Of a DNA stretch of 5,286 nt, positions 924-5,192 are shown piece after piece. Location: the IMG/VR virus record IMGVR_UViG_2744054628_000003, positions 1-5,286 of that record. One strand, written 5' to 3'. The notes under the pieces are model-generated. The model ran no database searches, had not been told where the DNA came from, and was given only the letters and a program-made list of their open reading frames with translations. The translations under genes and the position numbers were made by a program. Origin of the DNA: a virus (Duplodnaviria > Heunggongvirae > Uroviricota > Caudoviricetes). Positions within the stretch are counted from its first letter, which is position 1. The number at the start of each line of letters is the position of its first letter.

Positions 924-1319
924 TCACATTTCATAGGTAATGACATAAGTCAGATCGGCAGAACTCCACAGGCCCGCATCATCGTCGCGCCGGTAGTCAT
1001 AGCCGCTGGCCACCATACTGGTGATCAAATCTGACAGTGCCGGGATATCGCTCATCACCGGATAAATCCGGGACTCCATCCATGCATCCAGCTCTGAATC
1101 CGGCACCTGAGCAGGCAGGAAAACTTCAATATGCAGCTCCGCCTGCCAGGTATCGCTGTCCAGCTCTTCGCCCGTGTATTCAGCGCCGGTGAGATAAACG
1201 GCAATTGCCGGAAAATCTTCCTCATCAAAAACAGCGGGGCGACCATCAAAAAGCGTCGCCCCGGTGTCATGCTTCTCCAGTGCATCCAGTACGGCTGCAC
1301 GGAGTTCAGTATGTTTCAT
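924..1319 (-). CDS. U: Tail terminator protein U (lambda gpU-like), apparently intact, 131 aa
   Basis: ORF track 924..1319 (-): [131 protein letters not shown], recognised as lambda gpU with full-length size. Its ATG (1319-1317) overlaps the TGA of the upstream ORF (ATGA), and its own TGA (926-924) abuts the V Shine-Dalgarno. Confidence 0.9.
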
Positions 1320-3274
1320 CGCTTTATTACCATTCTCAGTTGATGCTGCAGCGCATAGCCCAGCTCTTTCGGAAGACGTTCACGCCGTATCCGTTCAATA
1401 TTCTGTTTAAACGCCGTGGTCAGCGGCACCGCCATCGGGATTTTCACCACATCAATGGGGTAACGGTTTTTCCCGGCCACACGCTGCATAACATGCCACC
1501 GGCCGTTTTTCAGTTGCTGAATAAACGCGCCGGGAATACGACGGTTACCCACCACAAGCACGCTGCCGCCACCTTTCAGGGATGAACGCTGCCCCTTTTT
1601 ACGACGCCTGCGGCGGGACAGGACAACCCGCGCATTACCCAGCTTGATTACGGGCAAATCCCCCCGGTTAACTTTGATTCTGGCCTGCGGATTTTTGACC
1701 GTGGCCCTTTTCAGCCTGGCCCTTTCCTTTACCAGTTTCCGGCGTACCTTTGTCTCACGGGCAACCTGTGACGCAGACTGCGATATCGCGGATGAAGCAA
1801 CGCGGTTAATGGGGATCACCCGGAACAGCCCATGTTTTTTCGAGCGTTCATACACAATGGTCGGGTCAATCCCGCCAGTATCCCAGCAGATACGGGATAT
1901 CGACATTTCTGCACCATTCCGGCGGGTATAGGTTTTATTGATGGCCTCATCCACACGCAGCAGCGTCTGTTCATCGTCGTGGCGGCCCATAATAATCTGC
2001 CGGTCAATCAGCCAGCTTTCCTCACCCGGCCCCCATCCCCATACGCGCATTTCGTAGCGGTCCAGCTGGGAGTCGATACCGGCGGTCAGGTAAGCCACAC
2101 GGTCAGGAACGGGCGCTGAATAATGCTCTTTCCGCTCTGCCATCACTTCAGCATCCGGACGTTCGCCAATTTTCGCCTCCCACGTCTCACCGAGCGTGGT
2201 GTTTACGAAGGTTTTACGTTTTCCCGTATCCCCTTTCGTTTTCATCCAGTCTTTGACAATCTGCACCCAGGTGGTGAACGGGCTGTACGCTGTCCAGATG
2301 TGAAAGGTCACACTGTCAGGTGGCTCAATCTCTTCACCGGATGACGAAAACCAGAGAATGCCATCACGGGTCCAGATCCCGGTCTTTTCGCAGATATAAC
2401 GGGCATCAGTAAAGTCCAGCTCCTGCTGGCGGATGACGCAGGCATTATGCTCGCAGAGATAAAACACGCTGGAGGGGTCATCCGGCGTCCATTTGAGGCC
2501 AAACGGCGTCTCTTTGTCGCCAAATTTAAGATACTGCTCCTCCCCGCAATGCGGGCAGGCAACATGAAAACGCATAAAATGCGGGGATTCACTGGCTGCA
2601 CGCTCAATCTGACAGGTGCCTCTCACTTTGGGCGTGGAGCCACGGATGGACTTTGGCCAGACCGAGCCTTCAATACGTTTGTCGCCAAGGAACGTCGGAG
2701 AGCCTTCCTGTTCAATATCCTCATCAAAGGCAGCAAGTTCATCATAACCCGCCACATCCACTGACTTTTCACGGTAGTTTTTTGCCGCTTTACCGCCCAG
2801 GCACCAGAAGCCACGACCATTGGAAAAACGCTTCATAGTGAGCGTGTTATCCCGGTGCTTTTTGCCATACCACGGAGCCAGCGCCAGCAGCGACGGAATA
2901 TCGCGGATGGTCGGCTCAACGTGGGTTTTCATAAAGTTCTCGGCATCACCATCCGTCGGCAACCAGATAAGGGTGTTGCGCTGCTTATGCTCTATAAAGT
3001 AGGCATAAACACCCAGCAGCATTTTGGAATAACCGACACGGGCAGACTTCACCACATTCACCTCACGGATGTAGTCGCTGCCCATCGCATTCATGATGGC
3101 CCGCTGAAAGGGCAGTGTTTCCCAGCGCCCTTCCTGGTATGCGGATTCTTTCGGGAGATAGTAATTAGCATCCGCCCATTCAACGGCGGTCTGTGGCTCC
3201 GGCCTGAACAGTGAGCGAAGCCCGGCGCGGACAAAATGCCGCAGCCTGTTAACCTGACTGTTCGATATATTCAC
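1316..3274 (-). CDS. A: In-frame chimeric ORF: terminase large subunit A N-terminal ~489 codons (approx 1808..3274) fused to tail completion protein Z C-terminal ~163 codons (approx 1316..1807); deletion derivative, probably non-functional as a terminase
   Basis: ORF track 1316..3274 (-), 652 aa. Residues 1 to ~489 (MNISNSQVNRLRHFVRAGLRSLFRPEPQTAVEWADANYYLPKESAYQEGRWETLPF...KKHGLFRVIPI) match lambda gpA as I remember it. This part includes a Walker A-like KSARVGYSK (residues 76-84, nt ~3023-3049) and a Walker B-like VDVAGYDE (172-179). The remaining 163 residues (NRVASSAISQSASQVARETKVRRKLVKERARLKRATVKNPQARIKVNRGDLPVIKLGNARVVLSRRRRRKKGQRSSLKGGG...LRMVIKR) are very basic and end in the ATGA-coupled start of U, which is where gene Z lies in lambda. 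Lambda gpA is ~641 aa and gpZ ~192 aa (from memory), so ~150 C-terminal codons of A and ~29 N-terminal codons of Z are missing. The start overlaps the nu1 3' end by 26 nt, as I recall for lambda. Confidence 0.85.
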   Translation of the reverse strand: MNISNSQVNRLRHFVRAGLRSLFRPEPQTAVEWADANYYLPKESAYQEGRWETLPFQRAIMNAMGSDYIREVNVVKSARVGYSKMLLGVYAYFIEHKQRNTLIWLPTDGDAENFMKTHVEPTIRDIPSLLALAPWYGKKHRDNTLTMKRFSNGRGFWCLGGKAAKNYREKSVDVAGYDELAAFDEDIEQEGSPTFLGDKRIEGSVWPKSIRGSTPKVRGTCQIERAASESPHFMRFHVACPHCGEEQYLKFGDKETPFGLKWTPDDPSSVFYLCEHNACVIRQQELDFTDARYICEKTGIWTRDGILWFSSSGEEIEPPDSVTFHIWTAYSPFTTWVQIVKDWMKTKGDTGKRKTFVNTTLGETWEAKIGERPDAEVMAERKEHYSAPVPDRVAYLTAGIDSQLDRYEMRVWGWGPGEESWLIDRQIIMGRHDDEQTLLRVDEAINKTYTRRNGAEMSISRICWDTGGIDPTIVYERSKKHGLFRVIPINRVASSAISQSASQVARETKVRRKLVKERARLKRATVKNPQARIKVNRGDLPVIKLGNARVVLSRRRRRKKGQRSSLKGGGSVLVVGNRRIPGAFIQQLKNGRWHVMQRVAGKNRYPIDVVKIPMAVPLTTAFKQNIERIRRERLPKELGYALQHQLRMVIKR

Positions 3275-3794
3275 TCAGCAACCCCGGTATCAGTTCATCC
3301 AGCGCGGCTGCTTTGTTCATGGCTTTGATGATATCCCGTTTCAGGAAATCAACATGTCGGTTTTCCAGTTCCGGAAAACGCCGCTGCACCGACAGGGGGA
3401 TCCCGTCGAGAATACTGGCAATTTCACCTGCGATCCGCGACAACACGAAAGTACAGAATGCGGTTTCCACCACTTCAGCGGAGTCTCTGGCATTCTTCAG
3501 TTCCTGTGCGTCGGCCTGCGCACGCGTAAGTCGATGGCGTTCGTACTCAATAGTCCCTGGCTGGAGATCTGCCTCGCTGGCCTGCCGCAGTTCTTCAACC
3601 TCCCGGCGCAGCTTTTCGTTCTCAATTTCAGCATCCCTTTCGGCATACCATTTTATGACGGCGGCAGAGTCATAAAGCACCTCATTACCCTTGCCACCGC
3701 CTCGCAGAACGGGCATTCCCTGTTCCTGCCAGTTCTGAATGGTACGGATACTCGCACCGAAAATGTCAGCCAGCTGCTTTTTGTTGACTTCCAT
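3249..3794 (-). CDS. nu1: Terminase small subunit Nu1 (lambda gpNu1-like), intact, 181 aa
   Basis: ORF track 3249..3794 (-): MEVNKKQLADIFGASIRTIQNWQEQGMPVLRGGGKGNEVLYDSAAVIKWYAERDAEIENEKLRREVEELRQ..., recognised as lambda Nu1. It has an N-terminal helix-turn-helix-like segment (KKQLADIFGASIRTIQNWQEQG) and a glycine-rich VLRGGGKGNE segment. It lies immediately next to the cos site with the expected spacing and orientation. Confidence 0.92.
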   Translation of the reverse strand: MEVNKKQLADIFGASIRTIQNWQEQGMPVLRGGGKGNEVLYDSAAVIKWYAERDAEIENEKLRREVEELRQASEADLQPGTIEYERHRLTRAQADAQELKNARDSAEVVETAFCTFVLSRIAGEIASILDGIPLSVQRRFPELENRHVDFLKRDIIKAMNKAAALDELIPGLLSEYIEQSG

Positions 3795-3933: not shown

Positions 3934-3971
3934 TTAAACCGGAAAATTTTCATAAATAGCGAAAACCCGCG

Positions 3972-3983
3972 AGGTCGCCGCCC
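3972..3983. other. cosN cohesive-end sequence (12-nt lambda-type cos overhang), phage genome end-joining / terminase nicking site
   Basis: 3972-3983 aggtcgccgccc is the reverse complement of GGGCGGCGACCT, the 12-nt cohesive end of lambda (established knowledge). The flanks (gcgaggtcgccgccccgtaacctgtcggatcgccggaaagg) match my memory of the joined lambda ends with a few substitutions. Confidence 0.9.
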
Positions 3984-4006: not shown

Positions 4007-4013
4007 AGGACCC
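4007..4013. other. Approximate position of a cosQ-like element (packaging termination signal) on the genome-right-end side of cosN
   Basis: Placed only by analogy: in lambda, cosQ lies roughly 25-30 bp from the nick site on the right-end side. The sequence here is aggaccc, within ccggaaaggacccgcaaaa. The exact boundaries are not verifiable from sequence alone. Confidence 0.3.
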
Positions 4014-4182
4014 GCAAAATGATAATAATTATCATCTACATGTCACAACGTGCATCTACGCCATCAAACCACGTCAAATAATCAATTATGACGCAGGTAT
4101 CGTATTAATTGATCTGCATCAACTTAACGTAAAAACAACTTCAGACAATACAAATCAGCGACACTGAATACGGGACAACCTC

Positions 4183-4416
4183 ATGTCAACGAAGAACAGA
4201 ACCCGCAGAACAACAACCCGCAACATCCGCTTTCCTAACCAAATGATTGAACAAATTAACATCGCTCTTGATCAAAAAGGGTCCGGGAATTTCTCAGCCT
4301 GGGTCATTGAAGCCTGCCGCCGGAGACTGTGCTCAGAAAAAAGAGTTTCTCCTGAAGCAAACAAAGAAAAGAGTGACATTACTGAATTGCTCAGAAAACA
4401 GATCAGACCAGATTGA
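4183..4416 (+). CDS. Small basic protein with ribbon-helix-helix-like N-terminus (YlcI / DUF3950-like), 77 aa
   Basis: ORF track 4183..4416 (+): MSTKNRTRRTTTRNIRFPNQMIEQINIALDQKGSGNFSAWVIEACRRRLCSEKRVSPEANKEKSDITELLRKQIRPD. The pattern is basic N-terminus, short beta-strand (NIRFP), helix (NQMIEQINIALDQ), G-x-G/S-N turn (KGSGNFS), helix (AWVIEACRRRL), typical of CopG/Arc-type RHH folds. It resembles the small protein encoded next to cos in lambda and DLP12-type prophages (from memory). Weak GGGA 9-10 nt upstream of the ATG. Divergent from nu1. Confidence 0.6.
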   Translation: MSTKNRTRRTTTRNIRFPNQMIEQINIALDQKGSGNFSAWVIEACRRRLCSEKRVSPEANKEKSDITELLRKQIRPD

Positions 4417-4472
4417 AGCAATTTAGATAATCGTGCAGACTACGCCCCTCATATCACATGGAAGGTACTACA

Positions 4473-4883
4473 ATGGCTCAGGTTGCCATTTTTAAACAAA
4501 TATTCGATAAAGTGCGAAATAATTTAAACTATCACTGGTTTTATTCTGAACTAAAACGTCACAATGTCTCACATTACATTTACTATTTAGCCACAGAGAA
4601 TATTCATCTTGTTCTTGAAAACGATAATACGGTTTTAATAAAAGGACAGGGTAAGGTTGTAAATGTAAGATTTTCAAAAAATAAATGCCTTATAGAAGCC
4701 ACCTTAAAAGGATTCAAATCAGGAGAGTTATCATTTTACGAATACAGGAAAAATCTTGCTACAGCAGGGGTTTTCAGATGGATTACAAATATCCACGAAA
4801 ACAAAAGGTATTACTATACCTTTGATAATTCATTACTCTTTACTGAGAACATTCAGAACACTACACAAATATTTCCGCACTAA
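4473..4883 (+). CDS. YbcV-like protein (DUF1398 family), function unknown, ~136 aa
   Basis: ORF track 4458..4883 (+). I prefer the ATG at 4473 ([60 protein letters not shown]...) because GGAAGG at 4460-4465 sits 7 nt upstream of it, whereas the ATG at 4458 has no Shine-Dalgarno. The sequence resembles E. coli prophage protein YbcV as I remember it. The gene is AT-rich relative to the structural genes. Confidence 0.7.
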
Positions 4884-4891
4884 ATCATAAC

Positions 4892-4920
4892 GTCCGGTTT
4901 CTTCCGTGCCAGAACCGGAC
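4892..4920 (+). terminator. Perfect 8-bp stem / 13-nt loop hairpin 9 nt after the ybcV-like stop; possible transcript-end or stability element (no U-tract)
   Basis: gtccggtt (4892-4899) pairs with aaccggac (4913-4920); the loop is tcttccgtgccag. It is not followed by a T-run, so it is not a canonical intrinsic terminator. Confidence 0.25.
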
Positions 4921-5080
4921 TCGCTGGCATGATGAAATATGTGTACCCGGTAACCCCGGTGTGCATCGTTTTTGATTATTCCCCCACACTTGTGCAGAAG
5001 GAGTTCCCCGTCAGGCTACAGTCATAATTAATGCAAGAGTACAGCGACGATACAGCGCACAGAAATAAATCAGGTATCCA

Positions 5081-5108
5081 TTGACTTCACAAAGACGGTG
5101 CATAGCAT
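5081..5108 (+). promoter_or_regulatory. Weak sigma70-like promoter candidate (TTGACT-N16-TAGCAT) reading rightward, away from cos
   Basis: ttgact at 5081-5086 (5/6 match to TTGACA), a 16-nt spacer, then tagcat at 5103-5108 (4/6 match to TATAAT). No long ORF lies downstream within the window. Confidence 0.2.
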
Positions 5109-5153
5109 CGACAGGAGTAATTGCGTAAATTGAACTCTTGGCACACTTTAGCC

Positions 5154-5192
5154 ACCGGCGAATCTTCAGCGGATTATCCTTGGCCGGTTTTT
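5154..5192 (+). terminator. Intrinsic-terminator-like element: GC-rich stem (accggc/gccggt) followed by TTTTT
   Basis: accggc (5154-5159) pairs with gccggt (5183-5188) around a large 23-nt loop, followed by a T-run (5188-5192, ggccggtttttatctg). The stem is short and the loop large, so this is tentative. Confidence 0.3.

Follow-up and report, generated by a model that had tools for sequence, protein, structure and literature searches.

The two small genes considered here correspond to a pair that has long been catalogued in Escherichia coli K-12 as ynfO–ydfO and is already known. In the Qin locus of K-12, ynfO (b4533) and ydfO (b1549) lie beside the Nu1 homologue nohA. DLP12 has the gene order nohD-ylcI-ybcW-ybcV, in which ybcW is found on the opposite strand between ylcI and ybcV, and phage lambda shares this DLP12-type arrangement, with lambdap78 as the DUF1398 gene and lambdap79 as the ybcW homologue. 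Genomic SELEX has placed PdhR sites ≈70 nt upstream of ydfO and ybcV (genome coordinates converted here), and ybcV mRNA falls 10-fold in a pdhR mutant (PMC7660256). Overproduction of DicC alters the level of ydfO. The gene is induced 12- to 116-fold by ionic liquid (PMC4077768), and lambdap78 is non-essential as judged by CRISPRi (PMC10695390). The neighboring lambdap79 is reported to activate the Vulcan defense system, and lambda escapers are reported to lose it through recombination with Qin, remaining viable after the region swap (bioRxiv 10.64898/2026.09.04.749371). Two other lambda genes, bor and lom, are described as being expressed in lysogens (PMC7067206). For the smaller of the two proteins, a comparative study of capsid-forming satellites (cf-PICI) includes YlcI/YnfO in its list of satellite genes (PMC13612085).

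The window, by which we mean the whole 5,286-nucleotide stretch of DNA that was analyzed, is a decayed lambda-like prophage with a Qin-type allele of the cos-proximal accessory region. Its minus strand is a lambda-type packaging region comprising the tail tube gene V (positions 422-946) and U (924-1319), a large ORF (1316-3274), and nu1 (3249-3794), which encodes the small terminase subunit and is the first gene of the packaging operon (Pfam Phage_Nu1, 8e-100). Between nu1 and ynfO lie a 12-nt core, aggtcgccgccc (3971-3982), that is the reverse complement of lambda GGGCGGCGACCT, and a cosQ-like heptamer, aggaccc (4009-4015), that is the reverse complement of lambda GGGTCCT. We take these elements to be cosN and cosQ on the basis of the lambda cos sequence and the position of cosQ in lambda, respectively. 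The cos-region DNA of the window matches 95 lambdoid phage records, and over the 200 nt past cosN/cosQ the window differs little from lambda's right end, being near-identical to it. A repeat search returned a near-perfect palindrome, ATGATAAT-A-ATTATCAT, just past cosQ (4019-4036), as well as an inverted repeat, ATCAATTATGACG/CGTATTAATTGAT (4081-4113), with 13-nt arms that are 85% complementary. The latter sits 70-100 nt 5′ of the ynfO ATG, is kept in lambda, Qin, and DLP12, and could serve as an operator. A search of the whole window against Rfam returned no RNA family.

Past cos and divergent from nu1, two genes occupy the plus strand, antisense to the late operon, whose packaging and lysis genes are on the minus strand. 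They are ynfO, a member of the YlcI/YnfO family (4183-4416, 77 amino acids), and a DUF1398 gene of the ydfO/ybcV/lambdap78 family (4473-4883, 136 amino acids), with a gap of 56 nt (4417-4472) between them. Both reading frames, the gap, the Shine-Dalgarno sequence ahead of the second gene, and the site past cos and divergent from nu1 are as the original prediction had placed them. The order, orientation, and spacing are the same as for ynfO and ydfO in Qin, and in an E. coli locus with 98.8% identity to the window, the RefSeq annotation has the same two names. Lambda and DLP12 carry the same two families on the same strand and at the same site, flanked by the lysis genes/bor on one side and by cos on the other.

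The structural genes have a GC content of 0.55, compared with 0.44 for ynfO (0.36 for the tail-encoding part) and 0.31 for the DUF1398 gene. The AT-richness attributed to the pair is mainly that of the DUF1398 gene, and the description of an AT-rich cassette is accurate for this gene and less so for ynfO. The accessory, moron-like character proposed for the locus is borne out by the orientation of both genes opposite to the late operon, by their GC content (0.31-0.44 versus 0.55), and by the non-essential nature of lambdap78 (PMC10695390). Lambda morons such as bor have the same location, from the lysis genes to cos, the same antisense orientation relative to the late operon, and a GC content below that of their flanks, and lambdap78 is likewise dispensable for lytic growth. 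Bor, however, is a lipoprotein, whereas the products of the two genes have no signal peptide or membrane segment.

The ynfO protein matches Pfam PF13132, DUF3950, with 74.8 bits (cut-off 25), NCBIfam NF041551, YlcI_YnfO_N, with 35.7 bits (cut-off 30), and phrog_949 at 7.9e-34. Alignments restrict conservation to the first ≈50 residues (codons 1-50, positions 4183-4332), which constitute the DUF3950/YlcI-YnfO domain: a basic N-terminal arm, a strand-like IRFP motif, a helix spanning residues 19-32, and the helix NFSAWVIEAC at residues 37-50. The motif IRF(P)...NFSAWV..AC marks this N-terminal unit and is retained in relatives with 40-55% identity. In a full-length alignment of 20-24 family members with identities down to 27%, residues I15, R16, I25, F37, and C45 are invariant, and F17, N36, S38, A39, W40, V41, and A44 are nearly so. 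Over the first 50 codons, ynfO differs from its Stx-phage homologue by 12 synonymous and five non-synonymous changes, and the gene is under purifying selection. Only 112 clusters were found in a full scan of 1.84 billion representative proteins. A tblastn match in a Pasteurella phage labeled “transcriptional repressor” was dismissed because the annotated gene is on the other strand. The Shine-Dalgarno sequence of ynfO is weak, a promoter scan of the plus strand from cos to the ynfO ATG called no sigma-70-like promoter, and no expression data for ynfO were found in the literature.

The identity of the second gene as DUF1398/YbcV-like, as originally proposed, is confirmed by its match to Pfam PF07166 (147 bits, cut-off 22; 3e-43), which extends over profile positions 1-119 of 119, and by its match to the solved structure of E. 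coli YdfO, PDB 2hh8 (phmmer 1.4e-69, residues 1-140). An alternative in-frame start is present at 4458, and the RefSeq start corresponds to 4473. The gene is 100% identical in phages Kati, Chlobot, ev099, and PhiR49_1. Its product has a pI of 9.4, and we detected no hydrophobic or membrane segment and no signal peptide in it. An AF2 model built on a shallow alignment of 14 sequences had a pLDDT of 47, too poor for confirmation of the fold. Several functional labels attached to this family in the literature and in databases were set aside. A protective effect of YdfO overexpression under oxidative stress has been claimed, but this is a citation error, the source paper reporting YfdO. The call of ydfO as “essential” comes from TraDIS alone, none of the other data sets of that paper flagging the gene, and we did not use it as evidence of function. 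No tool result supports the labels “head protein” or “envelope protein” for lambdap78, and the lack of a membrane segment argues against the latter. In the literature on lambda ribosome profiling and on lambdoid gene co-transfer, we found nothing on the ynfO or DUF1398 genes.

The DUF1398 gene is preceded by a conserved upstream block. At 4397-4413 on the plus strand, the window carries a PdhR-box homologue, AACAGATCAGACCAGAT, that is homologous to the K-12 SELEX site AAcaGGTcagACCAgaT at ynfO>ydfO (PMC7660256). The core match covers 4401-4409, and the left half-site reads GAT in the window rather than the GGT of K-12 Qin. The center of the box is 68 nt 5′ of the DUF1398 ATG, and the box is kept before lambdap78 and ybcV. 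Downstream of it on the same strand are a −10-like hexamer, GATAAT (4426-4431), kept 5′ of DUF1398 in both allele types, and the Shine-Dalgarno sequence GGAAGG (4460-4465), which ends 7 nt before the ATG at 4473 and is kept in all four aligned loci. A consensus promoter scan called no full promoter at the hexamer (4426-4431); from its conservation, GATAAT may nonetheless be part of a separate promoter for the DUF1398 gene. A terminator scan called none after ynfO or after the DUF1398 gene, and the hairpin following the latter does not outperform shuffled sequence (z −0.95).

We aligned the junction region of the window with those of Qin, lambda, and DLP12. The four loci are almost identical from 5′ of the ynfO ATG to about codon 50, and the N-terminal domains of lambda and DLP12 are ≈95% identical to that of the window (two of 50 codons differ). 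After codon ≈50, the window and Qin have 65 nt where lambda and DLP12 have ≈690 nt that include lambdap79/ybcW. All four then converge again at GGTCAGACCAGATTGAA, followed by GATAAT, the Shine-Dalgarno sequence, and the DUF1398 ATG, such that the upstream block in lambda and DLP12 is conserved as in the window. Codons 51-77 and the stop of ynfO (4333-4416) encode a charged tail that is non-conserved, as the original prediction suspected for the C-terminal residues; homologue tails differ, and the pLDDT over this part of the model is 54-59. The alignment indicates that these last 27 residues are read-through over a recombination junction into the DUF1398 upstream block, which accounts for homologues with near-invariant residues 1-50 and unrelated tails. 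Owing to the insert, the small protein of lambda and DLP12 is 64 amino acids long with another tail. In lambda, the corresponding 64-residue ylcI-like ORF, at 48109-48303 on the minus strand, is absent from the RefSeq annotation. Neither this copy in lambda nor the long-catalogued K-12 pair had been recognized in the original prediction. The window, which has no lambdap79, is in the state reported for lambda escapers from Vulcan.

Much of the tail diversity seen for YnfO in protein databases is artefactual and points to lambda control DNA. Many tail “variants” come from ≈3.5-kb ENA contigs or from assemblies of unrelated taxa, and they show the lambda gene order with frameshift-like differences. 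A search of genome contigs for YnfO likewise recovered mostly lambda control DNA in unrelated assemblies and was informative for Tatumella and Rouxiella only. Such error-laden copies of lambda control DNA swell the apparent diversity of tails in the databases.

The YnfO domain likely adopts a ribbon-helix-helix (RHH) fold, for which the evidence is weak but consistent. YnfO resembles the RHH proteins (Arc/MetJ/CopG; the TacA, ParD, and PrpA antitoxins; the regulator CdbA) in its size and basic N-terminal arm, as well as in an alternating strand-like motif with a Pro after it and in its two helices, the second of which is preceded by an N-capping N/S. It differs from them in that none of the RHH families gives a significant sequence-profile match and, relative to RHH type II antitoxins, in being without a cognate toxin. 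Our model of the monomer contains confident helices at residues 19-32 and 37-54, with residues 8-15 modeled as helix and the strand not formed. Foldseek ranked CdbA, an RHH protein, and a chain of VapBC (toxin-antitoxin) highest for this model, and the nearest structural neighbors of the N-terminal domain were the antitoxins TacA, ParD, PrpA, and RelB. Profile comparison with hhalign placed the domain in register with the strand-Pro-helix A segment of Arc, a weak match (E 0.0038, probability 8.8%), and aligned only 13 columns with CopG; the match to PHROG HicB-like proteins was also weak (0.007). No match to the Pfam RHH families was obtained at E values up to 1, and searches of the PDB sequences, both with the single sequence and with a profile, found no RHH protein. 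Taken as predicted, the domain would form an RHH dimer that binds DNA, and YnfO may regulate its own expression.

DUF3950 domains also occur in phage satellites. DUF3950 and the initial ≈50 positions of the small-terminase family Terminase_2 are fused in two protein clusters, P0185 and P0211. The elements that encode them are satellite-like and also contain genes for an integrase, a primase, Terminase_2, and a capsid protein, together with a small alpA-like gene. In these satellites, int and the alpA-like gene are on one strand and the DUF3950 genes on the other, divergent from the primase operon and at the place that a master repressor usually occupies. A third element has the same DUF3950 layout beside its integrase. 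A single DUF3950 gene or a pair of them adjoins int and an alpA-like gene in cf-PICI-like satellites. In one satellite, two perfect copies of the palindrome TGGTACGTACCA flank a TATAAT directly 5′ of a 60-residue DUF3950 ORF, and the gene for the DUF3950-terminase fusion is preceded by GTTTAACAC/GTTAAACAC repeats. The phage and satellite domains share ≈39-48% identity. DUF3950 is probably a family of DNA-binding regulators that is represented in the regulatory region of satellites as well.

Across genomes, the two genes can be separated. In lambda-type loci, YnfO stands ≈60 nt before DUF1398 in the same orientation in each of the 77 viral contigs whose upstream flank is long enough, a set of near-identical and therefore not independent sequences; this adjacency leaves room for a functional link within the lambda-type phage group. 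In lambda and DLP12 themselves, an opposite-strand gene and ≈650 nt separate the ynfO-like and DUF1398 genes. Among phage records, 155 contain YnfO-like sequence and 43 contain DUF1398, so that at least 112 of the 155 are without DUF1398. In an Stx phage, the DUF3950 gene lies between the lysis genes and the unrelated HNH/terS/terL packaging module, without DUF1398. In 5,426 complete E. coli genomes, DNA of the YnfO N-terminal domain has 9,861 match sites, with as many as 12 in a single genome, and near-full-length DUF1398 copies (at least 80% of the query) are present in 3,011 genomes only. Tatumella and Rouxiella have solitary chromosomal YnfO homologues with no phage context, and K-12 YcgX is a DUF1398 protein without a DUF3950 neighbor. 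By these data, the two genes are not inherited together. Within the loci that do contain both genes, YnfO of the window is 96% identical to that of Qin over all 77 residues, tail included, whereas its DUF1398 allele is only 76% identical to YdfO; the same YnfO tail adjoins DUF1398 alleles that are 100% or 76% identical to that of the window (L007 versus L008 and L002). The DUF1398 upstream block is conserved whatever stands 5′ of it. The notion of one functional cassette is not supported, in view of the separation of the genes in lambda and DLP12, the independent upstream block of DUF1398, and a tail that does not covary with the DUF1398 allele.

The observed gene identities, arrangement, separability, conservation pattern, and junction are best explained, in our judgment probably correctly, by two independent accessory genes, one for a small, probably RHH-type DNA-binding regulator with an incidental tail and the other for a soluble DUF1398 protein with a host-controlled upstream region. 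The region is the Qin-type allele of the accessory segment that extends, in phages of the lambda type, from the lysis genes to cos, and it now resides in a decayed prophage. Its two genes would be inherited independently and probably transcribed independently, both facing against the late operon. The ≈50-residue domain of ynfO/ylcI would most likely form an RHH dimer that binds DNA, making YnfO a small transcriptional regulator and probably an autoregulator, and its last 27 residues would be incidental read-through from the junction that removed lambdap79. The DUF1398 gene is predicted to give a soluble, basic, cytoplasmic protein. This gene retains its own upstream block, with the PdhR box, the −10-like hexamer, and the Shine-Dalgarno sequence. 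Its expression from the prophage would be controlled by the host, and it would be dispensable for lytic growth. We infer that it is expressed in lysogens of the window's prophage.

Alternatively, YnfO might be dedicated to regulating transcription of ydfO as well as its own, with both genes co-transcribed as one lysogenic-conversion unit. Such an operon would fit the shared strand and the 56-nt distance with no terminator called in between, the adjacency of the genes in lambda-type loci, where they are always neighbors or parted by lambdap79 only, and the predicted resemblance of YnfO to DNA-binding proteins. We nonetheless consider it unlikely: the DUF1398 upstream block is conserved irrespective of the neighbor, lambda and DLP12 interpose ≈650 nt and a gene on the opposite strand, most YnfO-family genes are without a nearby DUF1398, ycgX exists partnerless, and the host factor PdhR already explains the expression of ybcV. 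The layout also recalls a type II toxin-antitoxin-like or abortive-infection module, in which YnfO would act as an RHH antitoxin, its disordered C-terminal tail neutralizing a DUF1398 toxin, since a small RHH-like protein with a charged tail (pLDDT 54-59) stands 5′ of a ≈136-residue protein, the structural neighbors of the YnfO N-terminal domain are antitoxins (TacA, ParD, PrpA, RelB), and the locus lies where accessory genes accumulate. We give this reading almost no credence. The tail is non-conserved and junction-derived, one and the same tail accompanies DUF1398 alleles that differ by 24%, the genes are apart in lambda and DLP12, and each is found without the other. Searches with YnfO and the DUF1398 protein against Pfam, NCBIfam, and PADLOC-DB 2.0 returned no toxin, antitoxin, or defense family, which leaves the role in toxin-antitoxin function or defense that had been raised for the pair without a profile match in either protein. 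Subthreshold scores for the DUF1398 protein were 15.8 bits to HEPN_AbiA_CTD (cut-off 27) and 12.6 bits to PADLOC Csx23 (E 0.025). In addition, YdfO was obtained soluble for its solution structure (2hh8), and lambdap78 is dispensable.

The conserved position of ynfO could also reflect a role for YnfO/YlcI in packaging or in dealings with satellites, through DNA binding beside cos or through pairing with satellite regulators, either of which would influence packaging or the induction of satellites, with DUF1398 as an unrelated passenger. Although the lambda types use the terminase system Nu1/A and the Stx types the unrelated HNH-TerS-TerL, the gene stays immediately 5′ of the packaging genes in both and points away from them, and palindromes lie between cosQ and ynfO. 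Further arguments come from the satellites, in that P0185 and P0211 join DUF3950 to a small-terminase N-terminal domain, cf-PICI-like satellites carry DUF3950 genes, and YlcI/YnfO is listed among cf-PICI genes (PMC13612085). Heterodimers are doubtful, however, at a phage-satellite identity of only ≈39-48%, the solitary homologues of Tatumella and Rouxiella have no phage context, and the position could merely reflect a recombination-tolerant spot between modules. We regard a packaging or satellite role as quite unlikely and favor two independent accessory genes, a probable DNA-binding regulator and a host-controlled DUF1398 gene, as the account of this locus.

The ynfO and ydfO families are catalogued (ylcI/ybcV; DUF3950/DUF1398) and present in most E. 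coli genomes, and the pair matters little as a discovery. The analysis does provide a correction, in that the lambda reference record is without a conserved ylcI-like ORF. The satellite context of DUF3950 is a new lead and one worth following. It is conceivable, though in our view very unlikely, that DUF3950 proteins are an unrecognized family of RHH repressors of both lambdoid phages and the capsid-forming satellites exploiting these phages. They would act as the master regulator in the satellite, in some cases as a fusion with a small-terminase DNA-binding domain, with the near-invariant phage copy next to cos engaged in phage-satellite cross-talk or acting at the packaging site. If this were true, a lambda gene missing from the reference annotation would be linked to the induction of satellites or to interference by them.

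On the − strand of the window (1316–3274), a 652-aa open reading frame joins terminase large subunit gpA and minor tail protein Z in frame. Its gpA portion consists of the ATPase domain and positions 2–178 of 294 of the nuclease, and its Z portion spans positions 24–190 of 190, while the V open reading frame (422–946) encodes only 174 aa. Judged by the lambda gene order, in which the head genes stand between A and Z, these genes are deleted here, so the prophage is defective.

Alignment of the window with phage lambda (L004) and a second lambda-type locus (L003) shows that it carries the Qin-type allele across 4333–4397 (DNA alignment A5), without lambdap79/ybcW. According to a 2026 preprint, lambdap79 activates the Vulcan NADase defence system, and lambda escapers that lose this gene do so with Qin as the donor. 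In E. coli CP027459.1 (L135, 5400–9800), a satellite resembling a capsid-forming PICI appears to sit within an Stx-type prophage, inserted at about codon 61 of the prophage Terminase_2 small-terminase gene. In this region the satellite integrase occupies 6641–7876, the terS fragment 8696–8881, and HNH 9169–9534. Two DUF3950 genes, accompanied by operator-like palindromes, belong to the satellite, as does a separate Terminase_2 gene.

By eye, residues 1–57 and 88–126 of the DUF1398 protein (4473–4883) share a pattern of a helix followed by aromatic-rich strands, the matching segments being a 10-residue stretch leading on to VL in one half and an 11-residue stretch in the other; this pattern suggests an internal duplication. 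The ≈300 nt (4884–5190) that separate the DUF1398 gene from the Rz-like lysis gene contain no annotated gene; the same position is occupied by bor in lambda and gnsB in Qin. A hairpin at 4893–4921 folds no better than shuffled sequence. A reported gain in oxidative-stress resistance upon YdfO overexpression (PMC4077768, citing PMC3105296) was rejected as a gene-name mix-up because the cited study makes no mention of ydfO, reporting instead on YfdK, YfdO, and YfdS of prophage CPS-53.

Lambda itself encodes a conserved 64-aa YlcI/YnfO homologue beside cos (NC_001416.1 48109–48303, − strand; L004 3110–3304), for which the RefSeq record has no CDS entered. The same record names the DUF1398 protein lambdap78 a “head protein,” and older records a “putative envelope protein”; neither name is backed by any result of this analysis, and lambdap78 has no membrane segment. 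Many database “variants” of the YnfO and DUF1398 proteins (P0024–P0119 and P0243–P0343; loci L013–L043) trace to contigs of ≈3.5 kb or to assemblies from unrelated taxa, including Streptomyces, Cohnella, and Pedobacter, and show the lambda gene order together with frameshift-like errors. These variants of both proteins look like lambda control DNA contaminating the assemblies, and they inflate the apparent diversity and taxonomic range of the families.
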